DNA of 62,897 nucleotides, counting the filler, from Aduncisulcus paluster (Eukaryota), in NCBI GenBank assembly GCA_024181965.1. It is 10 parts of 10 records of this genome, joined end to end, with 100 filler letters (N's around TTAATTAATTAA, not from the genome) between each part and the next. Parts side by side here need not be neighbours in the genome. Positions count along the whole stretch, not along the records: positions 31,296 to 50,142 come from BQXS01011364.1; 9 more parts are not named here. One strand, given 5' to 3'. This document shows positions 5,544-54,799 of this stretch, piece after piece. Position 1 is the first letter of the stretch. Every line of letters begins with the position of its first letter. Made by a program: the position numbers and the translations under genes. Under the pieces are notes generated by a model that was not told the origin of the DNA, made no database searches, and saw only the letters and a list, made by a program, of their open reading frames with translations.

Positions 5544-5643
5544 NNNNNNNNNNNNNNNNNNNNNNNNNNNNNNNNNNNNNNNNNNNNTTAATTAATTAAN
5601 NNNNNNNNNNNNNNNNNNNNNNNNNNNNNNNNNNNNNNNNNNN
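5544..5643. other. Artificial contig spacer N44-TTAATTAATTAA-N44; also at 8818-8917, 12054-12153, 15356-15455, 22035-22134, 31196-31295, 50143-50242, 54800-54899, 59384-59483
   Basis: Identical 100-nt spacer with a six-frame stop 12-mer, nine times. Confidence 0.99.
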
Positions 5644-8817: not shown

Positions 8818-8919
8818 NNNNNNNNNNNNNNNNNNNNNNNNNNNNNNNNNNNNNNNNNNNNTTAATTAATTAANNNNNNNNNNNNNNNNNNNNNNNNNNN
8901 NNNNNNNNNNNNNNNNNCA

Positions 8920-35200: not shown

Positions 35201-36672
35201 ATGTAGACGGAATGGCACGTGATGGTCTTCGTACCCTTGTGTTTGCTGAGAAAGAGGTAGAGGAAGAAGAATGGTCTCGGTGGAAGGTCATGTATGACGA
35301 AGCAAAGGCCAGTGTTGTTGATCGAAAGGAACGTGTTTTGCGAGTTGAGAATGAACTCCTTCAGAACATGACATTGTTATCTATTTCTGGTGTTGAGGAT
35401 TTGTTGCAACAGAATGTGCGTACATCCCTTGAGAGTCTGCGTAAGGCAGGGATTAAAGTATGGATGCTCACTGGTGATAAGGTTGAGACTGCCAAATGTA
35501 TTGCTCGTTCCACTTCTCTCGTCGATAGGACTCAAGGATTCTCACAGATCATTGGGAAAGACGAGGATGCTATAAGGAGGAAATTAAAACAACACATTAA
35601 GAATGGTGATGGTAATTGTCTTGTTGTCGATGGAAACACTCTCTTAGTTGCTCTGGCTGATTATCCGGCGGATGGGAGAGTGTCTGACGCTGGATGTTGT
35701 TCAGGAATCCCTCAAAATGGTCCCGGATCTCTTGGAGGTGGTGATAGTCTTGGAGAATTATTGATAGAAACTGCTTGCGCTGCTCCATGTGTTGTTTGTT
35801 GTCGTGTTAGTCCCAACCAGAAGGCTCAGATGGTTAATCTCGCAAAGAAATACACTGGTTTGCAGACTGCTGCCATTGGAGATGGAGGTAACGATGTTAG
35901 TATGATCCAAGCAGCTGATTTGGGTCTTGGTCTTGTTGGTAAAGAAGGGAAACAAGCTGCCATGGCTAGTGATTTCTCTATCGATAAATTTTATTATGTT
36001 TTGAGACTATTGTTTTGGCACGGAAGGAATTGTTATACCCGTGGAGCACACATGACTCAGTTTGTCTGTGCCCGTGGTCTTGTCATATCTATTCTCCAAG
36101 CAGTGTTCAGTGCATTATTCTATTTCTCCTCCATGTCTCTCTTCTCTGGGTTTTTATTGATGGGTTACAGTGTGTTCTATACATCTTTACCAGTATTTGC
36201 TATGTGTTTTGACTATGATGTAGATAGTAACAAAGTGTTATTGTACCCAGAGCTTTATAAAGAGGTTGCAAGGGGTAAGGTTATGAGTAAGAAAACATTT
36301 GGAATTTGGATAATCAATTCAATATACCAAGGTGGTGCAATTATGATATTAACGATTATTTTATTCCACCAGAACTTTTATAGTGTTGTTGGAATTAGTT
36401 TCACTGCTTTAATTCTCATTGAGTTGCTTACTCTGCTCTTTACAGTGCATCATTGGACTTGGCAAATGATTGTGACTGAGATTCTGAGTGTCATTTTGTA
36501 TTTCGGGTCTTTATTCCTTCTCAAGAGCTATTTTGATTGGACTTTTATGATGCGTTGGCCTTTCTGGTGGCGTGTAATCATCATTACTCTCATTGCTTAC
36601 CTTCCTGTCAGGCTGGCACAGTGGATTAACGAAAAATGGGTCAATCCGCCAATGCAAACGAAATTGAAATGA
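32266..36672 (+). CDS. ATP9: P4-ATPase phospholipid flippase, ATP9/Neo1 class, with large low-complexity inserts
   Basis: LDGETDWKLR, IPISL, DKTGTLT, YQASSPDE, KGAD, TGDK, GDGGND; transmembrane segments. Confidence 0.95.
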   Translation: MGVERTIPLNSNIFTSNNEIPFNDNYVRSAKFNILTFLPIVLYEQFKQFNNFYFLVVTLSQFVPIFSVGYLFTFLVPLLFVLAIALFKEGYDDIQRHKRDKIFNSAEYIKLDSESPSGSVVKAMDIKVGDIIVVKPNQRVPCDCILLKTSQHTGATFIRTDQLDGETDWKLRRSIDFTQNLPSISSLLSQKAEIYAEAPHKKIYDFIGKATFHHPPRVSSSSSPSAISTRSPSPQITMLPSVAETTFDKEDLSGAEEDSCGISVSYSSGEKKENLLFDMDKLRDTMTTEPRSHSKQPGSKKRRKKKRRKKTHAQTTAISAYDDDIIHGMSDIVPNFSSKDALSLSDMLDHSGSRMSGGGSTSEKKVTVSGDSKKIGGKPSSSSSSSSSSSSSSSSSSSSSNPSEAAKIVGGDDLSPTATSFNPNSNDTETTVESLSLENTLWMNTILASGIAVCMVIYTGNETRAVLNTTKPRMKRGKFDDEINDFSKLLLVVMFILSFLEVAGSGFKSTWWLDFIRFILLFSAIIPISLAVNLDISKIVYQIFIQTDRKIPHTLVRSSHLPEQLGRVRFLFSDKTGTLTQNEMVFKKLHVGVQCVGSDELGLIRRKVREGLREEKEKNTRQRTGRGRGGTMVEESESESQASVSHSLTSTALLHHSTHGGTHHGGSHGSKKHHRHGKHYRSMISSSSSRGSHSGRAGQVSLSTLLFHSIRACALCHNVTPVQNKGSDDLEEDDWSLCDVVKNIVTIDEVGEDGKPMKKKGKGKGRGKDKDGQQSSSLLNGDADDEEDSLEPGCCTKCMRIGEVEDDEDIKRREKRREKREKEERKRRKKEQKNRKMQSSGSSKDGRFEHTHSTSLLAAIDEGEEHDDEDDSSEDSDDDIPSVTYQASSPDEVALVKFSESVGLTLSERELNWMRITTPSGGSLVYDILEIFPFSSVTKRMAIVVRARDTGKILIIVKGADSVIQSMIRSEGSEWLSENVDGMARDGLRTLVFAEKEVEEEEWSRWKVMYDEAKASVVDRKERVLRVENELLQNMTLLSISGVEDLLQQNVRTSLESLRKAGIKVWMLTGDKVETAKCIARSTSLVDRTQGFSQIIGKDEDAIRRKLKQHIKNGDGNCLVVDGNTLLVALADYPADGRVSDAGCCSGIPQNGPGSLGGGDSLGELLIETACAAPCVVCCRVSPNQKAQMVNLAKKYTGLQTAAIGDGGNDVSMIQAADLGLGLVGKEGKQAAMASDFSIDKFYYVLRLLFWHGRNCYTRGAHMTQFVCARGLVISILQAVFSALFYFSSMSLFSGFLLMGYSVFYTSLPVFAMCFDYDVDSNKVLLYPELYKEVARGKVMSKKTFGIWIINSIYQGGAIMILTIILFHQNFYSVVGISFTALILIELLTLLFTVHHWTWQMIVTEILSVILYFGSLFLLKSYFDWTFMMRWPFWWRVIIITLIAYLPVRLAQWINEKWVNPPMQTKLK

Positions 36673-36787
36673 TCGCCATTTCCTCCTCAACTTTGATTAT
36701 TTGTGTGAATAATACTCCGATTTCTTGTCTGACCAGATTCCTAGCGATTCATTTCTAAATTTTAGAATCTAAAATAAACACTAATTT

Positions 36788-36916
36788 ACTAAATTATTTA
36801 GTGACTAAATTGTCACTTTAGGCCTTTGAGAGGTCTCATAAGTATGGGTATAAATAGCCAAAATACCCTCAGGGTACGAAGGCTTCGAGATCTCGTTCCA
36901 GGACCGAAGCGGGATC
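36788..36916. ncRNA. Candidate structured RNA or inverted-repeat cluster
   Basis: Consecutive stem-loops in a GC-raised intergenic island; no family motif recognised. Confidence 0.25.
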
Positions 36917-37127
36917 AATAATTAGGTCATGATTATTACAACCTTGATGATCAAGAATTATAATAATTACCCAATATCCAGAGAAATCTCATTAATAGAT
37001 TGACAACTCCAGTAAATCAAATGCTTTAGTAGTAGAGCAACGACAGTTTCTATAGAATGAAATGATTCACACAACCCAAATAAGGATGCAAACAATCAAT
37101 ATTCTTAACAATTTTGAATTAATCTCT

Positions 37128-37818
37128 TTACACAATTGTCTCGGGAAATATGGATAAGATTGCCCCATATCTGTATAGAGCAGATTCAGCAGTGATTGTT
37201 CCAGCAACACTCCCACTTTCTACATATGGGTAAAAGGAATGATAACAAAACAAAATTATGCGTATTAATTAAAAGATCATGGATAGACAATGAATATTAA
37301 TCATAAAACATACCTTCAGATACAATTTTTAATTCTTGGTCTTTGGCAATTTCCAGCTTCATTCAATTAAGTTTAACNNNNNNNNNNNNNNNNNNNNATA
37401 TGGATAAGATTGCCCCATATCTGTATAGAGCAGATTCAGCAGTGATTGTTCCAGCAACACTCCCACTTTCTACATATGGGTAAAAGGAATGATAACAAAA
37501 CAAAATTATGCGTATTAATTAAAAGATCATGGATAGACAATGAATATTAATCATAAAACATACCTTCAGATACAATTTTTAATTCTTGGTCTTTGGCAAT
37601 TTCCAGCTTCATTCAATTAAGTTTAACTCAGAATTAATAAATATCAAGTTTCAAAAAGAAAGATTTCCCAAAAATGAACATACTTTTTCTGCAGCAAGAC
37701 GCGCTACCACTCTCATTGGAACATCACGCATGACATTCACGACAACTTGCTTACGAGATGACAATTGAAAGGACGTATTGATAATAAAAGTAATCTTTTT
37801 CTTAGGATACTTATCCAT
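37128..37818 (-). CDS. UFM1-like ubiquitin-fold protein, 89 aa, 3 exons (37818-37684, 37606-37564, exon 3 complete at 37219-37128), no C-terminal Gly
   Basis: Spliced product MDKYPKKKITFIINTSFQLSSRKQVVVNVMRDVPMRVVARLAAEK-LEIAKDQELKIVSEE-SGSVAGTITAESALYRYGAILSIFPETIV* is collinear with recalled UFM1; 37148-37377 duplicated at 37398-37627. Confidence 0.75.
37470..37563 (-). other. Spliceosomal intron 2 of UFM1-like gene (94 nt, phase 1)
   Basis: GTATGT...GTAG, restores frame. Confidence 0.75.
37607..37683 (-). other. Spliceosomal intron 1 of UFM1-like gene (77 nt, phase 0)
   Basis: GTATGT...GAAG, AT-rich, restores frame. Confidence 0.75.
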
Positions 37819-37846
37819 TGTTAATGGAGTTCTCTGTTTGGTTGTC

Positions 37847-37904
37847 AAAACGTCACTTTTGTGTGTGAATAAACCAGCCTGGCCAAAAAAAAAACGTCAC
37901 TTTT
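37847..37904. promoter_or_regulatory. Two copies of AAAACGTCACTTTT upstream of the UFM1-like ATG
   Basis: 37847-37860 and 37891-37904; variant AAAACGTAACTTTT at 13864-13877. Confidence 0.35.
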
Positions 37905-38102
37905 TGAAAAAACGCCGTTCACAAGTAAATTGTTAAATTGATTTTTAAAATTGGGTTTTCGCATTAGTCAAAAAAAGAACCCCGTCGTTCAAAAGTTTTG
38001 AATCAAAACGATTTATTATAAGGTTTGATGAGTCATAAATGATTTTTTTCAGACCTAAAACATAATTGATTAATATTGATAAAAAAACCCAGTACATCAG
38101 AT

Positions 38103-40268
38103 TTACCTGCCCTTTCTAACAAGTTCAATTCCCAATTCTTTACCTCTCTCTTTTTCTGCGGATAAATTTGACAAATAATCTTTGAATAAAGTAAAAATGG
38201 CACCATGCAATGCCTTTGATTGTTCCTCGCTCAAATCTGCGCTCAGAATTTCCTTTTTAATCTCCATTCCCTTTTGAACCCTTGACTTGACAGCATCAAC
38301 ATATTCAGACGGCCAAGATATTGGGCATATCATTGTTGGAGCATGTTTTGCATCCTTTGCGTCCCTTATTTTTCTTATTGTGGGACCCTTCTCTTCCTCT
38401 TTATCTTCATCTGAAGGACTCTCATCACCCCCTTCTCCCCTCAGCACACCGTTGAAGGGAAGGTCAATTGGAAAGACAAAGGGGAGGAACTCGACGGGAT
38501 TCATTAAAGGAGGGGGGATCTGAACACCCCTTTCTCCGATTCCTCGTAATCTCATACGCTGCTTCCATTGAGAATTGGAGCAACAATATAACAGACCTGC
38601 GAGACGAATATCCTCCATAAGTTGTGGATAAAATGTAGAGAAAGGTGCAACGATAGTCTGTCCTGTCTCTGATGCCGATGAAGGCTTTGAACAGATAAAG
38701 ATTGGAGGCACAGCAGATGCGATGCGTATCTCGCACCCAACGCATGATTCCACTCTCATGCATCCACACACAGCATGCACGACAGTATTAGTACACCCAG
38801 ATACCACGACTCCACCTGCCACAGCTCCACAGCATATGATACATTCCTCACACCCGGTTATAAGGATGTGAGATAGGTAAGATGGGACAAGAATAGAACA
38901 ATAAGCACACCCTGCAATACGAAGCACAGGTGGAGGAGAGGCGGGGGAAGGGAGAGGAGGGGTCTGAGTGGAAAGAACAAGCTCAAAGGGATGCTGAGAG
39001 GTTGCGGTTGATGGCATTCCATCGATCGCTTGGAGAGGGTTTGGAGAAGAGACTAAACCGCTCTGAAGGTCTGCACCGTGTTTCTCACCAATCTTGAAAC
39101 GACCATCAGGGGACACGACAACCAATCTGCGGGTGAGTTTGTTGACATACAACACTCCAGTGATATCGCTTGAAGCACCTTTCTTGGTATCACTGTCATC
39201 TCTACTCTCACTCCTTTCAAAGGCAGAAGTGAATGTGAGACCGTCATCCTCATCACTCTCACTGTCTTCACCATAGTCCAGTGGAGTGACACGACCCAAG
39301 CTATCGTCAAAGGACCCTGGAGTTGTCAAGGGTGTGACAGCTGGAAGGATCGAAGAACGTTCACCCTCAGGAACAGACGATGCGAGAGAAGGTGTAGACT
39401 TATGCATTAATGGTTCAGAATACTCCTCATCTTTCGATAAACCGACCTTAACCATAGAAGGAGTCGTTGAAGAGTCATCTGTCACACCCTCATCTGAATG
39501 TCCAAGAAGAGCCTCACATGAACGCACACGGGGGAAATATGTCCCCGGAACCATGATATTCTTCTGAATGAGATGTGATATGGTATGAACTGTAGAGTTT
39601 GAGGAAATGGAGGGGATCTTTTGCATCTTGAACAACCACCGAAGTCCACGAAAGGCCCTAGCAGAGATCGTGAGATGATTAGCACTAACTCGACCACCCA
39701 AAGGTTCCTCTGGATGGGTACTTGCCTCAGCTAAGGCTATTGATGATAATAAAAGCGTAATGTTAAGGGAGATGTATTTCACAGCTAAATTTCTATCAAC
39801 TACTCCTCTATTATCCTTTGAAGCAATATTTTCTGGCCAAGCATCCCCAGCACGATGCCTAGCAGTCTGAGAATCTTTCTGAGAAGTATATTTCCGGAAA
39901 AGAAGAACGAATAGAAAACACATAAACTCAGAGGAACAAGCTGGAGCTCGACATCTTTTTTGAACAGATTTAATAGATTTAATTTGAGTAAATGATGAAG
40001 GTGTTGGTTTCTCAGGATTTTCACACAATAGCTCTGGAGCACGTGAAAGATTGAAAAATTCAAAAAGAAGAATGGCTTGTTTATCTGGAATGCTTAAAAA
40101 TTTGGATGCAATCATAATCCATGTTGGTAAAGTTATTATTCCATTGTTTTCACAATCAGCGAGCCCTATCAATTTACCGATTGAAGGGAGCTTTTTGAGA
40201 TCTAAACTACAAGAGATACTGATTGGAAATGTGCATTGATCAAATACACGATATCTAACAACGAACAT
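38103..40268 (-). CDS. TBCCD1: TBCC domain-containing protein 1
   Basis: Cys-rich beta-helix repeats (ITGCEEC..CGAVAG..VSGCTN..RVESC) followed by APFSTFYPQL. Confidence 0.85.
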   Translation of the reverse strand: MFVVRYRVFDQCTFPISISCSLDLKKLPSIGKLIGLADCENNGIITLPTWIMIASKFLSIPDKQAILLFEFFNLSRAPELLCENPEKPTPSSFTQIKSIKSVQKRCRAPACSSEFMCFLFVLLFRKYTSQKDSQTARHRAGDAWPENIASKDNRGVVDRNLAVKYISLNITLLLSSIALAEASTHPEEPLGGRVSANHLTISARAFRGLRWLFKMQKIPSISSNSTVHTISHLIQKNIMVPGTYFPRVRSCEALLGHSDEGVTDDSSTTPSMVKVGLSKDEEYSEPLMHKSTPSLASSVPEGERSSILPAVTPLTTPGSFDDSLGRVTPLDYGEDSESDEDDGLTFTSAFERSESRDDSDTKKGASSDITGVLYVNKLTRRLVVVSPDGRFKIGEKHGADLQSGLVSSPNPLQAIDGMPSTATSQHPFELVLSTQTPPLPSPASPPPVLRIAGCAYCSILVPSYLSHILITGCEECIICCGAVAGGVVVSGCTNTVVHAVCGCMRVESCVGCEIRIASAVPPIFICSKPSSASETGQTIVAPFSTFYPQLMEDIRLAGLLYCCSNSQWKQRMRLRGIGERGVQIPPPLMNPVEFLPFVFPIDLPFNGVLRGEGGDESPSDEDKEEEKGPTIRKIRDAKDAKHAPTMICPISWPSEYVDAVKSRVQKGMEIKKEILSADLSEEQSKALHGAIFTLFKDYLSNLSAEKERGKELGIELVRKGR

Positions 40269-40756
40269 AATGGGGATAACGGAAAGAAATGATCCATCGT
40301 GCTAAAGAAATCCAACAAGCAAACTCAGAGGGATCAAAGCCTAGGAATATATTTGCTACATTCATGATTTTTTTATTTAAGGTTTTAAAATGCAGATAGA
40401 GACTGAAATTCCATGTCTAAAAAGTTGAACATCATCCATCACTTAATTAAAGACTATATGAATATAATACCAAAAATATATAATAATTATGCTTATTAAA
40501 TATTGAGAGTTTTAACCTTTAACCGAAAATACAACGATTAACCGTTGTGGGAGTTATCGAAGAAACGGGAGGTTGTATCATTATATGAATCAAGTTGAGC
40601 CAAGAATATTATAAAGTAAAATAAAGATTGTGTTCACAGTTGCAATTAAAGTGCGTGACAACGCTGCTACTTGCCATTTACGTATCATCATTCTATTTTG
40701 GGATCTCCATACATGAATCTTCCATTCAATCAATTTTGGAGGCCTTTTCTTATCAA

Positions 40757-41575
40757 ATGAGTTTGCCAATTTCATTTGAACTTTCTGCCCTTTATAAATT
40801 GTTGAATGGTATTCATTCTAGCCTCCCTGAGCCCACCCTGGGTTCTCTGGTTGGTTGCAAGACAAAGCATGGAATATACATAGCTGAGTGTTTGTTCCCA
40901 TCTGATGAAAGGTCTGAAGATGATAAAGAAAGATATCGTTTAAAGATGCTCGAATGTTATCGTGAATTAGGAATCGAATATGATATTGTTGGATTATTTA
41001 CCACTTCTCATGGGTCGTCACATTTAGATGAAGAAATTATCAAATTACAAGCCGATTATCAAAAAAGAAACAAGGAAAGTGTGTTAGTATTATATGATCC
41101 CGCCTCAATTAGTGGTGGATCTATGAAATTGACTGCCGTTCAATTGAAACCTAGATTCCTTGAAGTATTCTCTTCCACAGGTGAAATATTCCCATCTGAT
41201 CATGATCAAGTGAGAAGATATTCATTGGATACAAAGATTTTTGATTTCGTTCCAATTTCCTTCGAAAAGAATATGTTTATTGAAAATGCCGTGAGCTCTT
41301 TGAAAGTTATCGCACCAGAAGTCACAGAGGCCCCCATCCATGCCCCTATTTCTGATGTTCCTGCAATCAATTCCTCCATTCACAGTCTTATCTCTTCTTT
41401 CGAAAGTATTTCCCAGGCTGAGAAGAAAAAAACATCTAGATCGTCTCATTCAAAGGGTGAAAAATCCAATACTTTCCGTGAATTGTGTGTTTCTGACTCA
41501 TTATGCTCTGCCACAAAAGATGTCGTGGTAAGTCTTAAAGCTAAGTGTGATACATATGAAAAGACCTTTAAATAA
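40757..41575 (+). CDS. EIF3H: Translation initiation factor 3 subunit H (MPN domain)
   Basis: YRLKMLECYRELGIEYDIVG, QADYQ..KESVLVLYDP..GSMKL match the eIF3h pattern; ATG at 40757. Confidence 0.85.
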   Translation: MSLPISFELSALYKLLNGIHSSLPEPTLGSLVGCKTKHGIYIAECLFPSDERSEDDKERYRLKMLECYRELGIEYDIVGLFTTSHGSSHLDEEIIKLQADYQKRNKESVLVLYDPASISGGSMKLTAVQLKPRFLEVFSSTGEIFPSDHDQVRRYSLDTKIFDFVPISFEKNMFIENAVSSLKVIAPEVTEAPIHAPISDVPAINSSIHSLISSFESISQAEKKKTSRSSHSKGEKSNTFRELCVSDSLCSATKDVVVSLKAKCDTYEKTFK

Positions 41576-41961
41576 GTTATTTTTTGTATGAAATGAACAA
41601 TAATACCTCCACCATAATAAAATATAAAGAAAGGCGCTGCCTTCAACTCATTGTTTTCGATTGATTTATTTTTCTGGAAAATGGAATCATATATTCTCGG
41701 TGATTATTTCATATCAATCATAAAATGAATGAACTAATTTTGAATTCTTAATGTAATATTGATGGATATCTTAAATTTGGAGTGATCTAGAGAAATTCTT
41801 GTATCACAGGCGTGGCGTGTACAAGGAGAAAATAAAACTGAAAGAAAATTACAATATATAGCATCAAAATCCATTATGATAATTTAGTTCCTCATTGGTA
41901 ATCGCACCGTCAGGACAGTTTGTTGACGTGTTCTGAAATTCACATTTTGATCCAAAATCGC

Positions 41962-44900
41962 ATGACATCACCAATTACCAGGGAGGAAATTGCCAAATTA
42001 GTGGCTACACATGGAGTTTCTCTGGACTCAATTTCCCCTAAAACCTTGTCAATCGGATCAGCTATGGTTGGAGTTGTAGAGAGTCATCCCGATGATACTA
42101 CATCCCTCTTCTTACTGGACCTTACTTCTAATGAAGGTAGACGTACCCCTAGCCCCGTTTCTATGGTTTCTGTTCACCCTTCGAAGAAGGTATTTGCTGT
42201 CCGTGGTGAAGCTCAAATTTCCGTTATTGATCAAGAGAATCGGCAAAAGTTTTCTCTTAAATTTGAAGAAGAAGTTCTTTTCATGAAATTTATGACCGAT
42301 GATATCTTTTCCATTGTTACTCCTTCTGCTGCTTACTTCTGGGTGTTTTCCCGTGAAACCCATGGTGTCGTGTCCGAAGGAAAAGGTACCCTTGCCCGTG
42401 TTTTTGCTATGGAAGCTGATATGGCCTCCATAACATTGACTGATATGATTATTTCTCCTTCTAAAGAGTTCTTCCTTCTCACTGGTGAGGGAAGAGCTTT
42501 CCTATACTCTAAAAAAAGCAAATCTGGAAGAATCTTGCCAGCTTTCGCCGGATCTTTCGCTTCTATCAATGTTGCCCCCGGCTGTCCCGCTGCCGAAGTC
42601 TTTGCCTTTGCCACTATTTCTGACAATGTTGCTCGTCTCAATGTCACTGAATTAAACCCCGTGAAGAAAGAGGATGGAACCACTGAAAGTGGATTTGTCA
42701 AGCGTGTTGTCGAATTGGGCCCATGCAACAACGATTACCCCATTTCTTTGACCATTACTTCCCATGGCTTTGCTTTCGTTCTGTTCAAGAAAGGATCTCT
42801 TCGTGTCGTTGATTTGGGCACTGGTCTCATGTTTTACTCTGTCAGGAGTGTGTGTGGTTCCGATTTGCTCACTGCTGTTCGCACCGACACTGGAATGGTT
42901 GCGGGCTCTGTTGCTGGTCACATCCTTCGGTTTGCCGTGAAAGAGGATCGTGTTATCCCTCACATTATTACAGCCAGACATGACCCTGAGAACGCCTACG
43001 TTATTGCTGAACGTACCAAGCTCCCCGGTGGAGATGCTCTCTTCTCCCACCGTTTCGGTCATCTCTTCTCCTCCAACCAGTTCAAGGCTGCCGCCGAAGT
43101 TGTCGGTAAATCTCCCGGCACCACTTTGAGAAACATGGAGACTCTCAAGCGTTTCATTGATGCTGGTAACGATCCCGTCAGTAATGCTCCTGCTTTCCTC
43201 ATCTACCTCTCTACCTTGATGAGACATGGTCCTCTTACCAGTGAAGAGAGTGTTGAGCTTGTTAAGCGTATTGTTGCCCAAGGAAAGACCGATGTCCTTC
43301 ACAATTACATCCGTGACAAAAAGATCACCTGCAGTGAGGAACTTGGTGATTTCCTTCGTTCCAGTGCTCTTGAGAAGGAAGCCTTCATTGTCTATCACAC
43401 TGCTGAGGCCAAGCATAAGGTTGTAGCTATCTATGCTTCTCGTGGTGAGTTTGACAAGATCATTGGGTATTGTGAGAAGACAGCTTATGTCCCCGATGTT
43501 GGGAAGCTTATCCACGTCATTGCCACTCGTGACCCAGACAATGCCGTCAATCTCGCCCGTAAGTTTGCTGAGAAGATCCCTGATTGTGATGTCCCTGCTA
43601 TGGCTGAGAGTCTTGCTAACCTTGGTCTTGTCAAGGATGCCACTGGTCTCATATTATCTCAGATCAAGGCCAAAGAGTTCAACGAAGAGACTGCTCCTCT
43701 TCAGACTCGTCTTCTTGAAATCAACATCCGTGCCAATCCCGAGACTGCCGCCACCATCCTTGACCGTGGTATTTTGAAGTTCTATGATGCCAGTGTCCTT
43801 GCTCCTCTCTGCGAGGAAGCCCGTATGTTCAGTCATGCTGTCCGTATGTACTCCAACTCTGCCGACAAGCGTCGTGTTGTAGTTAACCACACCAAGGACC
43901 TCCAACCTGTTGATGTCGCTGAGTACGCCTCTATGCTGGAAGATGCCTCCGAGATTCAGGATCTCCTCCGTTCTCTCCTCACTGCCAATCTTCGTGCCAA
44001 TCTCCAGCATGTTATTGCTGCTGCCGTTGTCAGTGTTCACCATTTGTCCCCCAACGGTGTCGTCAGTCTCCTTGACGAGTTCCGTTCTCACGAGGGTGNN
44101 NNNNNNNNNNNNNNNNNNCCGTATGTACTCCAACTCTGCCGACAAGCGTCGTGTTGTAGTTAACCACACCAAGGACCTCCAACCTGTTGATGTCGCTGAG
44201 TACGCCTCTATGCTGGAAGATGCCTCCGAGATTCAGGATCTCCTCCGTTCTCTCCTCACTGCCAATCTTCGTGCCAATCTCCAGCATGTTATTGCTGCTG
44301 CCGTTGTCAGTGTTCACCATTTGTCCCCCAACGGTGTCGTCAGTCTCCTTGACGAGTTCCGTTCTCACGAGGGTGTCTTCTTGTTCCTGCACCAAGTGAT
44401 ATCAGAAGTCGATGATCCTGACATGCACTTCCGTTACGTCGAAGCTGGTGTCAAGACTGGGAACGCTGGTGCTCTTGACGGGTTCTTGCGTACCTCCGAA
44501 CACCTTGATGCTCAAAGGACTCTCACTTTCCTCAAAAACGAGCAGCTTGATGATGTCAAACCTCTCATTGTTCTTTGTGATCGTTTCGATTACATTGATG
44601 AGCTCATCTCCCATCTCTTAGCTCATAACCTTGAGCGTGCCATTGAAGCCTATGCTCTCAAGTTCAACCCTGCCAAGATCCCTGATGTCGTTGGTGCTCT
44701 TATTGACCATGAAGCTGATGATGATCTTGTCACTCGCCTCATCCAAGAGGGTCGTAATGCCGTCGATATCTCCTTGTTGTGCGATGAATGTGAGAAGAGG
44801 AATAAGTTGTCTGTGCTCAGAGCCATGCTTGAGACCCGTGTGAGTGAGGGTGCATGTGATATTGAGACCCACACTGCTCGTGTGAAGGTCCTTGTCCTCG

Positions 44901-47434
44901 CTGGAGATGTTGGTGCCGAGGAAGCCATCGTGACTGCCGATGCCCTTGATTTCCGTGGTGTTGGAGAGTTTTGTGCACCAAGAGACCCTCATCTCGCCTT
45001 TGTGGCCTTCTCTCGTGCTGGCTCCGATTGTGAGGATGAACTCCTTTCTATTGCCTCCAAGGGTGAGCTCTTCAAGGAGCTTGCTCATCATGCTATCGTT
45101 GCCCAAAGCGAGGAACTCTGGCGTAAGATCTTATCTGGAACTCACATTACCGCCTCTTCTCCTATCCCGACTGAAGATGACATGGACGAGCTTATGGACG
45201 GTCTTGTCGATGAAGATGAAGAGAAGGGAGAGGCTGAGCAGAAGAACACTGAAGATCCCCAAGATGACAGTGTATCCACCAAGCTTCGTGACAGTGTTGT
45301 TGCCGAGATTAAGAAGCAACTTCCCCTCTGTGAGAAGATTGAAGAGGTTTCTGGAACCATCCGTGCCTTTGATGCTGCCAACTTGACCAAGGAACTCATC
45401 AATGTTCTAGAGTGTGTGATCTTTGGTGAGTCTTTGTTCAGCAACAACACTTTCCTCCAGAACCTTCTCATTCTCAACTCCATCCAGGATATGCCCGAAC
45501 GTGTGAGCAAGTATGTCAGTGAATTGTCTGACTACGAGGGAAGAGAAGTGGCTGAGAGTGCTGTTGCAAGTGAGTTGAATGAAGAAGCCCTCATTGTCTA
45601 CAAGAAGTTCAACCTCCATGTCGAAGCTCTTGATGTCCTTGTTGATCACATCAGAGACATGGACAGGGCTGAAGAGTACGCTCAACTCCATGATGTTCCC
45701 GAAGTATGGTCTCGTCTGGCTCACTCTCTTCTTCGTATGGGTCGTATCGAGGATGGTATCAAGGCCTTTGTTCGTGCTGAAGATCCCACTGCCCATCCCT
45801 TCGTTATTCGTGCCGCTGAAGAGAGCAACAACCTTGCTGCCCTTGTTCCATTCCTTGAGATGGCCCGTAGTAAGGCTCCTGAACCCGCCATTGACACTTC
45901 TCTTGTCTTCGCTCTTGCCAAGCTTGATCGTCTTGGAGACATGGAGGATCTTATTGTTGGAGGTACTTGCTGTGCCAATCTCTCACATGCAGGACAGAAA
46001 TGTTATCAAAACGAGCTATATCGTGCTGGTCTCTTGATCTTCCGTGCCATCAGTGACTATGGTTCCGTTGCTGCTTGCCACTTGAAGCTTCGTAACTTCA
46101 TTGAAGCAATCGAGGCTGCTCGTATGGCTAACAATGTCCGTGTCTGGGGCGAGGTCATGCGTGTCTGCGTCGATGCTGGTGAGTTCAGACTTGCCAAGAC
46201 TGCTGGTATAAATGTTATTCTTATCCCTGAGGAGATTGACTCCTGCATCTCTTTCTATTTGTCACGTGGTCATGTCGAACATCTCATTGAGCTCTTAGAA
46301 ATGGGAACTACGCACGAAAAGGCTCACATTAGGCTCTTCACTGAACTTGGTGTCCTTTACAGTAAGTACAGTGCCGACAATATGATGGAGTTCGTCAAGC
46401 GTTTCATTAAGAGATGTGACGTCGATCGTATTGCTCGTGCTTGCCAACGTGCTCATTTGTGGGCTGTTCTCGTCTTTGTCAAGCTTGAGAGCGGTAACCT
46501 TGACGATTGTTTGAACATTATGATGGCTCAATCCTCCTCTGCTTGGGATCACTCACACTTCATGAACATTATCGCTCACGTGTCCACCCTTGATGTTCTA
46601 TTGCGTGCTATTGATTTCTATGTTAATCAACAGCCACAGTTGCTCAATGAACTCCTTGTAACACTTGGAGAGAATGAGCATATTGACGTCGGTCAGATTG
46701 TGTCTCGTATCAGACGTAATGAGGCTGGGTTCCTTGCCTTGAATTGGCTTGAGGAACGTCAGAAGATGGAAGATGTCGAATGTATTAATGCACTCCTCCA
46801 CAACCTTTACATTGATAACTTTGACCACGTGTCATTAACCCACTCTGTGAGATCCGTTGCCAACTTTGACGTTGTTCAACTTGCTACTCGTCTCTCCAAA
46901 CACGAGTACCTTGTGTTCAGACGTGTATCTACGGAACTCTTCCGTCGTGCCGAAAAATGGGGAATTGCCATTTCCTTGGCCAAGAAAGACAGAGTATACG
47001 GTGACGCCATTGAAGCCGTCAAGCTCAGCCGTGACGGTGAGATGGCTGAAGAGCTTCTCACTTGGTTCCTTGAGAGTGAAGACTTTGCTGAAGCTGCGAC
47101 AGAAGAGACCGAGGAAGAGGACAAAGAGTTCGATGCTGTCAAGCAACAGCGCCACGAATGTTTCTCTGCTACCTTGTTCAGATGCTCTGACTTTATTAGA
47201 CCTGATATTGTTCTCTGTCTTGCTTGGAAACACCACATTTCCGACTATGCAATGCCATTCATGATACAGACTGTTCGCACATACAGCACCATTGTTGATG
47301 AGCTCCAGAAACGTGTGGCTGTCCTCGAACGTGGAAACGTTGGTAGTGTCGCTTCGAGTGAAGAAGAGGATGCCGCTATGGCTGAGGCTATGGAGGCTGT
47401 CCATGATGATGTTTATGACAATGCTTTTGAGTAA
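41962..47434 (+). CDS. CLTC: Clathrin heavy chain (one gene; apparent split caused by 43842-44098 duplicated at 44119-44375)
   Basis: SPGTTLR, KITCSEELGD, PLIVLCDRFD, CEKRNKL, LQNLLIL, FTELGVLYSKY, DYAMPFMIQ. Confidence 0.97.
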
Positions 47435-48043
47435 TAGGTAATTTTGAATAAAAACAATGAAAGTTAAATAACCTTTTTATAACGTTAATTGATGATTAAT
47501 ACTTTTTTTCCGCTGGTTATGGTTATTTTGCTGTTTTGTTACAATATTCAATAAGTTCAGAGATTTTCGTAAATAATTTAGATTTAAAAGTTAATGTACA
47601 TATGTTATATGAGTTACCTATTCAAGATGCATAAGTAATTATGTATTTATGATGATTGATTTTTTTTACGCTTAAATCAATTGAAATCGGCATTATTGGG
47701 TGTCTTATTGCCTTGTAATTTGCCTTTAAATTTATGAAAATATTCTGATTGATCGTAGTAACAGGTCAAGACGGTGCAAATGAGGTCAATCATCCTCATG
47801 TTTGAAATCCTATCCATCTTTCTAAGAAACTGATTTATTTGATGATTCATATTATTTGGAAAGATTGAAGATATTCAGATCACTCGTGAGAATGGTACTT
47901 CAACAAGATACAGAATTTGGGATTTTTGAGACCATTCATCTTTGTGGATGGCTGGATTATCTTACAAAATCACACATTGATTCAATGTAAAACTGATTTA
48001 GTCTTCTCGACTAATCCGACCCCCTCCTGCCTTTAATTTCTCA

Positions 48044-50140
48044 TTATCCTAAAAATAGAACCTCAACTCCTGCTCCAGACTGTTCGATGCTGTCATAGAC
48101 TGATTGTCTCAAGTGTCTTTCATCTTCAACAGGCATTGATATTGTCATATGTCGTGGAGCAGTATATAGCATTAGAGAAGAATGATTGATGGAGTCTTTC
48201 TCAATGAAGAGCTTGCTTTCATCTGGCTTACAACTTTCTTCGGCGTCCCTTTGCTTTTTTGGGATTTCACAGCAGATCTGGCCTCGAACACATATTTTTG
48301 TTTTGTGCTGAATTGCTACACCCGTTATCACGTTAACGAGGGAGAAATCCAAGAAGAAATGTGTTCCTTTCAAAGATTTAGTAAATTCCATCACAGAACA
48401 TATCCGGGAAACATACTCATATTCACCAGAATCTGGAGAAATCGATGTTTCAAGCACAGGGATCATGGAAACCATGGGAACAGAGGAGATTAGCGGAATG
48501 AAGAATTTTCTTGAAACATATGCGGCAACATTGGAAACATAACGATCGTAATCTGGTTGCTGAGTGGCCTTGTTATCCCAAATCCATTTCATGCTATCGT
48601 CAAACTTGGGAGAGAGAAATGGAATGATCGATGGGTCAGAAGAAAGCATTGAAATGAGACGAAACCATTGTGAACAACTGTGGACATAATCTTTATCCTT
48701 ATGATACTCATACCAAGGAATTAACACATCTTTGACATTGGTGTAGATCTCAGGAATACGGGCAGAATCACAACACAAATTGGCAAAGAATCCAAACACA
48801 TTGTAGTGAGTGAAATCACGGTGGTGTCTTCGAAATGTCCTCATGACAACACTGAACAATGGCCAGGCCTCAGAAGCTAACCGAGCGTTTGGAGGCCCAT
48901 AGTTGGAAGAAAGTGTCATGAAATACAACATATTTATAAGACCCTTTTGAATGAAGATATTGTCAAACCTTCTAAAAAATTTGGCAACAAAGGGTTGAAA
49001 CAGAGAGAGTATTGACGATTTTGTAGAAATGTCGAGTAAAAACACGGCAAGATTGAGAATTCTGACGATAAATTGTTCAATATTTTCCCCAATAAGTTTC
49101 CCCGTGACGATTTCTATGAAGATTCGGGATAAATTAGAATGAATCTTTCCAAAGAAATGTTCACAGGAATGAAAATGATTTTGTGAATAACGCCAACATA
49201 AGATACAAAACTCGTGATCAATCAAACTACCAGGAAGAACAGTTCCAAATCGTGAAATATCGTCAATGAAGGTATCAAACAAATCGTTATAATCATCCTC
49301 GGGGAGTAACACTTGTGACTGAACCTTATGTGGGTATTTACGGAAGATGGAAGGTTGCAGAAAACACGATAGACACTGACAACAATAGAAAATCTCGGTT
49401 TGATTGGATTCAATTTGTGAATTTGTTTTCAAACTCTGGAATAGAGCTTTGATTCGTCCTTTGTAATTATTGTACAGTGTAGAAATAGACTGCGAATTGG
49501 GACATTTGTAGATAATTTCTTTCAGTAACTTGTTCCAAGGTTGGATCTTATTGGAAATTTCAGATGAAGAGCAATGAGCAAGATAACAACAATAATGCAC
49601 ACTTGTCGCACACATCTTTCCATTTAGTTTGCACCATTTCATCTTGGCATCAAATTTAGAAGAGAGTTTTGGAACAAGAGATGGAACGCTGGAGAAATTC
49701 GTGATAAGGCGAGACCAAAATTCAATCCCCCATTTAGATTGTTTCCTTTGATATAGCTCGAACCAAGGGTCAAGAAACCCCTCACACTGTTCATAGACTT
49801 CAATGGTCTGTGAAGGAATGGAACTCAGATTGGAGAAGAAAAGCAGAATAAGAAAATCATATTGGAATTCATTTCCTTTTGCAAATATTTCAGGTAAAAT
49901 ATCAGTCACAGGTTCGAACAAACTCCAGGCATCAGCACATAATGTTAGATTAGGATTATCGTCTTTATCTGGAAATTCAGTCATGTTAGATAACAGAACA
50001 ATCCACATATCCATGCATGTCGGGTCATTATATATGGAGAGCCATTCTCTGACGTGAGGTTTGATAAGGGTGAGAATGGACAATTTTACAGATTGATCCT
50101 TTAAGCTGGAAATATTTCGAAGCGTTCTTAACATGTTAAC
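48044..50140 (-). CDS. Lineage-specific helical-module protein (about 1.5 copies visible) ending in a partial beta module; 5' truncated
   Basis: SILTLIKP, FFSNL, WGIEFWSRLI, PKFD..MKW shared with the 481-3489 C-terminus. Confidence 0.8.
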   Translation of the reverse strand, partial: VNMLRTLRNISSLKDQSVKLSILTLIKPHVREWLSIYNDPTCMDMWIVLLSNMTEFPDKDDNPNLTLCADAWSLFEPVTDILPEIFAKGNEFQYDFLILLFFSNLSSIPSQTIEVYEQCEGFLDPWFELYQRKQSKWGIEFWSRLITNFSSVPSLVPKLSSKFDAKMKWCKLNGKMCATSVHYCCYLAHCSSSEISNKIQPWNKLLKEIIYKCPNSQSISTLYNNYKGRIKALFQSLKTNSQIESNQTEIFYCCQCLSCFLQPSIFRKYPHKVQSQVLLPEDDYNDLFDTFIDDISRFGTVLPGSLIDHEFCILCWRYSQNHFHSCEHFFGKIHSNLSRIFIEIVTGKLIGENIEQFIVRILNLAVFLLDISTKSSILSLFQPFVAKFFRRFDNIFIQKGLINMLYFMTLSSNYGPPNARLASEAWPLFSVVMRTFRRHHRDFTHYNVFGFFANLCCDSARIPEIYTNVKDVLIPWYEYHKDKDYVHSCSQWFRLISMLSSDPSIIPFLSPKFDDSMKWIWDNKATQQPDYDRYVSNVAAYVSRKFFIPLISSVPMVSMIPVLETSISPDSGEYEYVSRICSVMEFTKSLKGTHFFLDFSLVNVITGVAIQHKTKICVRGQICCEIPKKQRDAEESCKPDESKLFIEKDSINHSSLMLYTAPRHMTISMPVEDERHLRQSVYDSIEQSGAGVEVLFLG

Positions 50141-50242
50141 ACNNNNNNNNNNNNNNNNNNNNNNNNNNNNNNNNNNNNNNNNNNNNTTAATTAATTAANN
50201 NNNNNNNNNNNNNNNNNNNNNNNNNNNNNNNNNNNNNNNNNN

Positions 50243-52246: not shown

Positions 52247-54799
52247 ATGGTGAAGTTTCAAATTTTTAAACTTATTAGGTATGTTCTTACTCGTTTTTGA
52301 AATAATTTTTTTTCGATCTGGCTTATTTATCTTTTTTTTTTCTTTTCCATCTACTATTCAGTGGTTTTGATTTGTTTGAGGAGATAAAAATCTTGAAATT
52401 GGTCAAATCCAAAGATAGGGCTCATAAAGCAATTGTGGAAGGGTTACGTGAACCTTTACGTGGGTTGGAATGGTTGGGGTTTCTCGGAGTACTTGGAGAA
52501 GATTCTGGCCATTGGCCCAACGAAATTAAATTTATTACTGATCAATTTTTATCTCATAAATCTCTTGAAAAATCATTGAAGCCTACTCGCAATCTTATAG
52601 CTGATAATCCTCTTGCTGCATGTGAAGGGGGGGTTTGGGATTTTAAGTTTGAAAAGGCCGAAGCAGAGCAAGATATTACAATTGATCTTGAACGTTTGTT
52701 TCCAGAAATTGACTTTTTCCGTCAAGGTTATGTCCAATCAGATTTGCTTAAAATCTTGCGGGCCTGGGCTTTGGATCATAAAGCTCAAGGTTATCGTCAA
52801 GGAATGCATGAAATTGCAGCTGTTTTTTATCTTATTCTTGATATTATGCGTCTCGGCGCTGAAAAATGGATTACCAGTGCTTCTAGTGACTTAAAATCTC
52901 AAATCTCGGAGTACATTCCCATTTTCACATCTGATTGTGTGTGTGCTCTGACTCACGCCGCTCTAACGTGCATATTGAATGTCACTGGTGTTTGGTTTGG
53001 TCTTAAGAACCCTACCCCTGGATCCTCTCAGCGTTCCACCCCATCTATGACTCCATCACACACTCCAGGAACCCATACTCCTCTTTCAGGCGGTTTTGAT
53101 GTTTCTTCAACTCTTCTGGCATCTTCCTCGGCTGTGGATTCTTCTTCTTCGCGTCTCCCACCGGCTACACGTGTTCCTACCCTTTCTGCTGCTCAAATGG
53201 CTGAAGCTATGCTCTCTTCCTTGCTATCTATTCATGATCCTGCTCTNNNNNNNNNNNNNNNNNNNNGGAGTACATTCCCATTTTCACATCTGATTGTGTG
53301 TGTGCTCTGACTCACGCCGCTCTAACGTGCATATTGAATGTCACTGGTGTTTGGTTTGGTCTTAAGAACCCTACCCCTGGATCCTCTCAGCGTTCCACCC
53401 CATCTATGACTCCATCCCACACTCCAGGAACCCATACTCCTCTTTCAGGCGGTTTTGATGTTTCTTCAACTCTTCTGGCATCTTCCTCGGCTGTGGATTC
53501 TTCTTCTTCGCGTCTCCCACCGGCTACACGTGTTCCTACCCTTTCTGCTGCTCAAATGGCTGAAGCTATGCTCTCTTCCTTGCTATCTATTCATGATCCT
53601 GCTCTAAACAGGATCATAACGAAGATTTCTGGGCCTGTTATCGTTGTTCTTAGATGGGTACGTCTCTTGTGGGGTCGTGAATGGGCCATCGATTCTGTAT
53701 TCAGACTATGGGATGTTTTATTTGGCCATAGTTATATGAGCGAAATAGCTCAGGGAAGCAAAACTGGTGGAATTGGAAACAGTTCCAAACCCCGTCCTCC
53801 TCCAGCTCTCTCCCATGTCTGCCCACCCCTCTCCCTCATCCCATCAATTGTCCTTGCCTCCTTTAGATTGATGAGAACAGATATCCTGCCACCTCATCAG
53901 GAAGGTGAAGCTATACAGAGGATCATGGGTCCCATTGGGAAACCAAGTGAGTTGTATGGAAGTCAACAGGGTGGTGGATATTATGTGGTTCCTGTTGAAA
54001 AGGTTATCCAGGATGCTCTAATTCATATCCGGTATGGAGTTGCAGAGAGGAGGAAGAAAGAAGAGGAGGAGAGGAAGAAGAGAGCTATGTTGGAAGCAGA
54101 GCGAAGGAAAGAAGAAGAGAGGAGGATCAGGGATATGCAATCTGCAGAACAAGATGATTTGAATGCTCTTGCATCTGCACCTGTCTTCTTTGATCCTTTG
54201 TCCTCATCAACATCACATCCTTCGGTTCCCCAACAGTCTACCTCTACTCGTTCTGAGACTCCCTTATCGTCTGCAACCTCTCCTTTATCGTTTAGTTCAG
54301 GGGCTTCTTCCACTTCTTCTGGAGGTGCTGTTCGTGGTAGTGGGTCTGCAAGTGGATATCCTGGACCAGTCACGAGCAGTTATGGAAATGCCCAAGGTGG
54401 ACAAGATGCATATCATGGGAGTTATCCAGCCATGACCACGGCCACTTCTTCTGCTCCCGTGTTCCATGATGCTTTGTCTGGATCCGTGTCTCCTGATTAT
54501 CTTCATTCTCTAACACAGAAACCCCACAACTCATACACATTACCACCACAACCAAAGAAAAAGAAGGAAAGTGGATGGAAAACTTTTATTAATTCCTTTA
54601 AATCGAAGCCTAAACAGGCCCAACCAACAGTGCAGAGTTATGATGTTCCTTCCCAACAAGGTTATAAAATTCGCCAGCTTCAAACCAATACAATCACTTC
54701 TTCTCAATCTATTTCTGGAACATCGGTGTCATCAACTGCTTATAATGATCCCCTATCTTCAAGCATAGTTACAACTACCCCTCCCCTTTCTCCTTCTCC
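52247..54799 (+). CDS. TBC1D5: TBC-domain Rab GAP, TBC1D5-like; intron 52279-52361; 3' truncated
   Basis: IDLERLFPE, YRQGMHE, LRWVRLLWGREW; GTATGT...CAG intron joins MVKFQIFKLIS in frame; 52908-53246 duplicated after N gap. Confidence 0.8.

Follow-up and report, generated by a model that had tools for sequence, protein, structure and literature searches.

The window analyzed here, a stretch of 62,897 nt (filler included) of Aduncisulcus paluster DNA, consists of separate contigs joined by nine spacers of the form N44-TTAATTAATTAA-N44 (e.g., 5544–5643, 8818–8917, 31196–31295 and 50143–50242), so that genes on opposite sides of a spacer are not neighbors. On the contig that spans positions 31296–50142 (18,847 nt), window translation and a splicing script recover a UFM1-like gene on the minus strand, which is made of three exons and two GTATGT introns and codes for a protein of 89 aa with a Val-TAA end. 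When spliced from the window coordinates, its product is a letter-for-letter match to the GenBank entry 'hypothetical protein ADUPG1_009877' (P0002, 89 aa) of A. paluster, whose C-terminus reads ...SIFPETIV ahead of the TAA. The features of the locus, with transcript evidence from the contigs of one public run (X1), are the following:

37891–37904, minus strand: distal 14-nt upstream motif, AAAACGTCACTTTT on the plus strand, about 73 nt upstream of the ATG
37847–37860, minus strand: proximal 14-nt upstream motif, AAAACGTCACTTTT, about 29 nt upstream of the ATG
37684–37818, minus strand: exon 1, 45 codons (MDKYPKKKITF...RLAAEK), with the ATG, first in frame, at 37818–37816; the loose end of X1 record 2 behind 37356 consists of exon 1 letters
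37607–37683, minus strand: intron 1, 77 nt, GTATGT...AAG; spliced out in the X1 contig (loose end at 37356)
37564–37606, minus strand: exon 2, exon-1-side copy, 43 nt, with the same letters as 37314–37356
37398–37563, minus strand: intron 2 (37470–37563) and the start of exon 3 (37398–37469), in a copy cut by the gap
37378–37397, no strand: assembly gap, 20 N
37148–37377, minus strand: artefactual second copy, 230 nt, 100% identical to 37398–37627, holding the last 21 nt of intron 1, exon 2 (37314–37356), intron 2 (37220–37313) and the start of exon 3
37131–37219, minus strand: exon 3, which completes the split codon and adds 29 codons, ...SGSVAGTITAESALYRYGAILSIFPETIV; X1 record 2 covers 37102–37219 with 0 differences
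37128–37130, minus strand: TAA stop, at the position of the conjugating Gly of UFM1; the next base is A (TAAA)
36673–37127, minus strand: downstream region that the gene and the convergent P4-ATPase gene have in common; X1 record 1 shows it as transcribed and without splicing
18342–18361, 27231–27250, 37378–37397, 44099–44118 and 53247–53266, no strand: 20-N gaps of the window with duplicate flanks

Intron 2 is 94 nt long and has the form GTATGT...TAG. The codon log-odds of the coding sequence are +16.6 in frame vs. −5.2 to −42.5 in the five other frames, and its GC content is 38.6% vs. 24% for the introns. This coding-like codon usage and GC, together with splicing and transcription (see below), supports the view of the first-pass annotation that the gene is not decayed. 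The model drawn there, with three exons, GTATGT introns, 89 aa and a V-TAA end, is equally upheld by the splicing script, the identity to the GenBank protein and the X1 contigs. A different acceptor for exon 3 (AAAG, 3 nt downstream) was considered and rejected: with it the frame becomes non-UFM1-like, and the X1 joint uses 37219.

The interval that contains the gene (37128–37818) also holds a 20-N gap (37378–37397) between two direct repeats of 230 nt that are 100% identical (37148–37377 and 37398–37627). Of the six 20-N gaps in the window, five are bordered by direct duplicates of this kind, which are 230–339 nt in length and 99.7–100% identical, and the published A. paluster assembly is a short-read MaSuRCA draft (PMC9933649); we therefore interpret the duplicates as contig-end overlaps that were left unmerged, i.e., as an assembly artefact. 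Exon 2, intron 2 and part of exon 3 thus stand in two copies in the window and in one copy in the transcript, as represented by the X1 contigs. Because the 230-nt duplicate and the gap lie inside the gene, the real span from ATG to stop is 441 nt and not 691 nt: the first-pass annotation had placed the gene correctly, but the 691-nt span that it gave does not hold, as the duplicate and the gap had been missed. The hypothetical protein ADUPG1_009878 (P0001, 107 aa), whose contig is likewise recorded with a length of 18,847 nt, repeats 18 mid-protein residues because its gene model runs on into the duplicate beside the gap; it is an artefact of annotation at the locus that encodes the 89-aa ADUPG1_009877. 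Elsewhere on this contig, the gap at 44099 lies inside a clathrin heavy-chain gene and splits it into the ORFs 41902–44163 and 43883–47434.

Upstream of the gene, the motif AAAACGTCACTTTT is present in two exact copies (37847–37860 and 37891–37904) with a spacing of 44, so that the duplicated motif described in the earlier reading is real. At up to one mismatch, it has three matches in the window vs. 0.04 expected. The third of these, a one-mismatch copy (AAAACGTAACTTTT, 13864–13877), is located about 90 nt upstream of a minus-strand ORF (12106–13776). Read along the gene strand, the motif includes TGACGT and, judged by this sequence signature, may be a promoter element.

The neighbors of the gene on the 31296–50142 contig are a P4-ATPase, a TBCC-domain protein, a weakly matching MPN/JAB-like protein and the clathrin heavy chain, none of which belongs to the UFMylation pathway; likewise, none of the UBA5, UFC1, UFL1 and UFSP families was found among the six scanned ORFs of this contig. 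The P4-ATPase (phospholipid flippase) ORF (32257–36672, plus strand, 1471 codons, ending in TGA) has a 3′ end that converges on the UFM1-like gene and displays long low-complexity inserts, namely a poly-Ser run and Lys/Arg/Glu-rich stretches. Within AT-rich DNA between these convergent genes lies a GC-richer island (36800–36930) with X1 contig coverage, whose predicted folding is better than that of all 200 shuffles (z −2.84); it may correspond to a small RNA or a 3′-UTR structure. Rfam and tRNA scans around the UFM1-like gene, the former including the island, yielded nothing above threshold. The MPN/JAB-like protein is a 316-aa ORF (40625–41572, plus strand) that matches JAB/MPN weakly, at E = 0.0011 and under the cut-off. 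With no His-x-His motif seen when it is translated, it is best taken as a probable non-catalytic MPN protein; it has no evident link to the UFM1-like gene.

Transcript evidence comes from contigs of run X1 aligned over 36600–37378; such contigs drop rare isoforms, and the label of the run as RNA is a guess that is based on the spliced joints. Record 2 of these contigs covers 37102–37219, skips exactly 37220–37313, covers 37314–37356 and continues with letters of exon 1. The skipped segment is bounded by CT..AC on the plus strand, i.e., by GT..AG on the gene strand. As record 2 is devoid of both introns, the run contains spliced RNA, and the junctions, which the first-pass annotation had singled out for a transcript check, are confirmed, with both introns removed as modeled. 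The same annotation had named a lack of expression and a transcript encoding Val-Gly among the observations that would speak against its reading: the spliced contigs show transcription, and the TAA is unchanged in the X1 contigs. Indeed, all three records over 37102–37131 (records 1, 2 and 3) carry it, and no differing letters, indels or further joints are listed in the X1 contigs over 36600–37378. The mean word depth of the X1 contig is 159.7, a value that shows transcription and is no gauge of expression level.

Record 1 runs unspliced from the UFM1-like gene through its 3′ flank into the convergent ATPase gene. There is no exon that could supply a Gly in 36673–37127, with record 1 covering 36600–37131 and one joint being listed over 36600–37378. 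An alternative GTAAAG...ATAG splice, which had been entertained in the earlier reading and which, if used, would give a V-N end, is not borne out: the sole joint listed over 36600–37378 is that of intron 2, and the contigs are unspliced through the stop. Record 3 (303 nt) has sequence in common with the window only over 37102–37131, beyond which it continues, across a junction devoid of GT/AG ends, into sequence that the window lacks; a search of the window for the 30-mer of its loose end, allowing up to three mismatches, finds no copy. This record may stem from a second allele or copy whose 3′ flank differs.

In the genetic code of some diplomonads TAA stands for Gln. We considered such an alternative code and rejected it: among the ORFs of at least 250 aa in the window, 19 of 27 stop at TAA (seven at TGA and one at TAG), ORFs in the window most often end in TAA with a following A, and read-through of the TAA in the UFM1-like gene would give V-x-R-D-stop, i.e., no Gly.

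We then turn to the affinities of the protein. In a comparison of this one protein with all 24,736 Pfam models, Ufm1 (PF03671) is the sole family at E up to 10 (E = 4.3e-4, 20.6 bits), and the alignment pairs residues 8–82 with profile positions 1–73 of 75, i.e., end to end. Its 20.6 bits lie below the curated cut-off of 27. A HMMER search of PDB sequences (E up to 10) gave two matches, the first of which is the UFM1 chain 6izg_A (E = 0.021, residues 8–86 vs. 14–91 of 95), followed by a cyanate hydratase (E = 0.29). The alignment to 6izg_A has no gap between the YG motif and its last aligned pair, query residue 86 and chain residue 91, after which three residues are left in the query vs. four in 6izg_A; hence, the frame stops one residue short. 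In both the DNA and the X1 contigs the end reads ...PETIV-TAA, and the protein has no C-terminal Val-Gly, whether exposed or ahead of a cleavable extension. At 89 aa, it has the size of a UFM1-like protein (single domain, ~85–100 aa). The collinearity with UFM1 claimed by the first-pass annotation is thus sustained by the end-to-end alignments to the Pfam profile and to 6izg_A; the similarity is above chance level and yet weak, with a family score that stays under its cut-off. As leads only, most of the named Atlas clusters closest to the protein are ubiquitin-like families (Rad60-SLD, ubiquitin, YukD and DUF2604, with scores of 0.85–0.90), and a Ufm1 cluster, again only a lead, is at rank 23 with a score of 0.85.

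Other searches were negative. Single-exon Pfam searches gave zero families for all three pieces (one of which, 37131–37219, was out of frame), and phmmer against 1.84 billion representatives retrieved no UFM1 or other relative at an E of 0.001 or better, returning the protein itself and three repeat proteins. The latter (a WD40 protein, a retroelement-like repeat and a third protein) were rejected, as their scores are summed over repeats. Word-based searches found only ADUPG1_009877 and ADUPG1_009878 of A. paluster among six and four candidates, and a scan of metagenome contigs gave 593 pattern matches with zero confirmed relatives. A single-sequence AlphaFold2 model of low confidence (pLDDT 67.7, pTM 0.57) displays the order strand-strand-helix-strand-strand-helix, which is that of the beta-grasp minus the fifth strand. 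With this model, Foldseek found no PDB match at an E of 0.001 or better (the best, at 0.079, being CBS domains), and VIA-align reached a best Z of 4.4 in the wide search and 4.6 in a second look, with no ubiquitin-like chain listed; the top rows of the fold searches are weak matches to CBS, Rai1/DXO, pilotin and like folds. The beta-grasp fold, which the first-pass annotation had named as a criterion, is neither confirmed nor refuted with this low-confidence model. From the sequence comparisons, we consider it very probable that ADUPG1_009877 is related to UFM1 by descent. Given that both the curated score and the terminal Gly are wanting, we class it as a UFM1-derived variant and not as a UFM1 modifier.

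The E1 enzyme UBA5 activates (adenylates) the carboxylate of the terminal Gly of UFM1; this Gly is indispensable, and UFM1 ranks in general as one of the better conserved tags of the ubiquitin-like kind. Since UBA5 acts on the Gly carboxylate and ADUPG1_009877 has no such Gly, it is predicted to have no entry into the E1-E2-E3 cycle. A close experimental parallel is offered by Leishmania donovani, the last two residues of whose Ufm1 are named Val97-Gly98: the form ending in Val97 (Gly98 removed) is the non-conjugatable control, Ufm1 conjugates only in the form that ends in Gly98, and E1 activity is seen only with mature wild-type Ufm1 and not with G98A (PMC3021533). With the V-TAA end and this Val97-ended control, the first-pass description of a non-conjugatable UFM1-like protein stands. 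Its designation there as a paralogue would presuppose that the genome also encodes a canonical UFM1, and the adaptor or decoy role proposed for it would be a possible analogy with Hub1/UBL5. We conclude that ADUPG1_009877 is probably unable to serve as a covalent tag, barring the addition of a Gly by some hidden route.

Compared with UFM1 (PF03671), ADUPG1_009877 is also a single-domain, collinear protein of about 85–95 aa, and the two have in common an ...AAE... motif in a helix, a YG motif and a tail of the form P-x-x-x-V; unlike UFM1, it ends at Val with no Gly, scores under the Pfam cut-off and has no relatives in other organisms among the 1.84 billion representatives. Furthermore, the K-Y-G of the 6izg_A chain, whose Lys we take to be the chain-linkage site of UFM1, is R-Y-G in ADUPG1_009877. 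Another comparison is with Hub1/UBL5, a ubiquitin-fold protein that has no conjugating Gly and acts by binding; the C-terminus of Hub1 is Tyr-Tyr, whereas the tail of ADUPG1_009877 is ETIV, and it has no Pfam match to the ubiquitin/Hub1 families. The engineered Ufm1 of L. donovani ends, just as ADUPG1_009877 does, in the Val that precedes the conjugating Gly, here Val97 (PMC3021533), but it is a laboratory construct in a host with a working pathway, whereas ADUPG1_009877 is natural and highly diverged in the rest of its sequence too. A resemblance in mechanism only might link it to apicomplexan ATG12, also a ubiquitin-like modifier without a C-terminal Gly: the loss of this Gly went along with that of the E2 ATG10, and ATG12 kept its function by binding to ATG5 without a covalent bond (PMC7600729, where Pang et al. 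2019 is cited). It differs from ADUPG1_009877 in that it belongs to another family (there is no Pfam ATG12 match), and in that a partner and a retained function have been demonstrated for it, while for ADUPG1_009877 they would be inferred. Non-covalent binders of UFM1 itself exist, e.g., the sAIMs of C53 (PMC10183829).

Among the fornicates, Giardia intestinalis has a UFM1-domain protein, GL50803_104982, for which a predicted structure 'not typical for Ub-L' is reported, with UBA5, UFC1 and UFL1 not found (PMC7029713). It is, like ADUPG1_009877, a fornicate UFM1-like protein; it is not among the phmmer (1.84 billion representatives) or word-based matches of ADUPG1_009877. According to a phylogenomic survey, UFM1 is missing in Spironucleus and Trichomonas (PMC10183829).

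On balance, we favor the reading that this is a real, intron-containing, transcribed gene, whose product is a UFM1-derived protein outside the conjugation cycle. ADUPG1_009877 would be an 89-aa, very fast-evolved derivative of UFM1, whose frame ends at the Val preceding the conjugating Gly and which, having no Gly, would have left covalent UFMylation. It could represent a remnant of a UFMylation pathway that fornicates dismantled, with a presumed loss of the enzymes in A. paluster. If it is still working, it might, by analogy with apicomplexan ATG12, bind a former partner non-covalently. The intact frame across two introns, the coding-like codon usage and the transcription argue for such a retained role. 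The broader proposition that in A. paluster, a free-living fornicate, UFM1 was converted from a covalent tag to a non-covalent subunit, with the Gly and, presumably, the enzymes being lost and the protein kept for a binding function, e.g., at a former UFM1 receptor or at the ribosome/ER machinery, is one that we put forward tentatively and hold to be somewhat doubtful.

An expressed relic, UFM1-derived but functionless, with the lost Gly codon and the extreme divergence as signs of drift after the loss of the pathway and with transcription and splicing merely persisting, is an unlikely alternative, for which several lines of evidence speak: the protein is an orphan with no relative in the 1.84 billion representatives, the word-based searches or the metagenome contigs, it matches a normally well conserved family very weakly, and fornicate relatives are described (PMC7029713, PMC10183829) as being without the conjugation enzymes or without UFM1. 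Against mere drift, the frame stays open for 89 codons over two introns that are correctly removed, its codon usage and GC are coding-like, the X1 contig, with its mean word depth of 159.7, shows transcription, and the stop coincides with the Gly position instead of falling just anywhere. It is more unlikely still that we are dealing with a chance resemblance, i.e., a lineage-specific small protein with no kinship to UFM1, in which case the missing Gly would be meaningless. The Pfam score under the gathering cut-off, the PDB E of only 0.021, the fold searches with the pLDDT 67.7 model, in which no ubiquitin-like chain is listed, and the fact that shuffled proteins sometimes reach Atlas scores of 0.85–0.90 are what such a coincidence would produce; yet, with the whole set of 24,736 Pfam models searched, Ufm1 is the sole family listed (E = 4.3e-4), the match runs end to end and the protein, at 89 aa, has the right length, the PDB as an independent library also ranks a UFM1 chain first, and the named Atlas neighbors are mostly ubiquitin-like families.

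We regard as highly improbable that the protein is still a covalent modifier, its Gly coming from readthrough, a rare alternative 3′ exon or a second allele or copy, or the Val being accepted by its E1. A second 3′ context does exist, in that X1 record 3 branches off at 37102, 26 nt past the stop, and ADUPG1_009877 is recorded on two contigs, the longest of 39,528 nt, other than the 18,847-nt contig that carries the gene here. However, this branch comes after the TAA and has no GT/AG ends, the same stop is present in all three X1 contigs over 37102–37131 with no variant or extra joint listed, TAAA is the commonest ORF end, and neither read-through (V-x-R-D-stop) nor the GTAAAG...ATAG splice (V-N) would yield a Gly; moreover, the Leishmania Ufm1 that ends in Val went unconjugated (PMC3021533).

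No paper in the literature searched has both Aduncisulcus and UFM1, and UFM1 in work on Carpediemonas, Kipferlia or Fornicata is not among the matches listed. A natural, transcribed UFM1 derivative that ends in Val would help date the dismantling of UFMylation in the lineage of Giardia. If the conversion of UFM1 from a covalent tag to a non-covalent subunit in A. paluster is true, it would be a second, independent covalent-to-non-covalent transition after that of ATG12 and would constitute a natural experiment on which functions of UFM1 need no conjugation.
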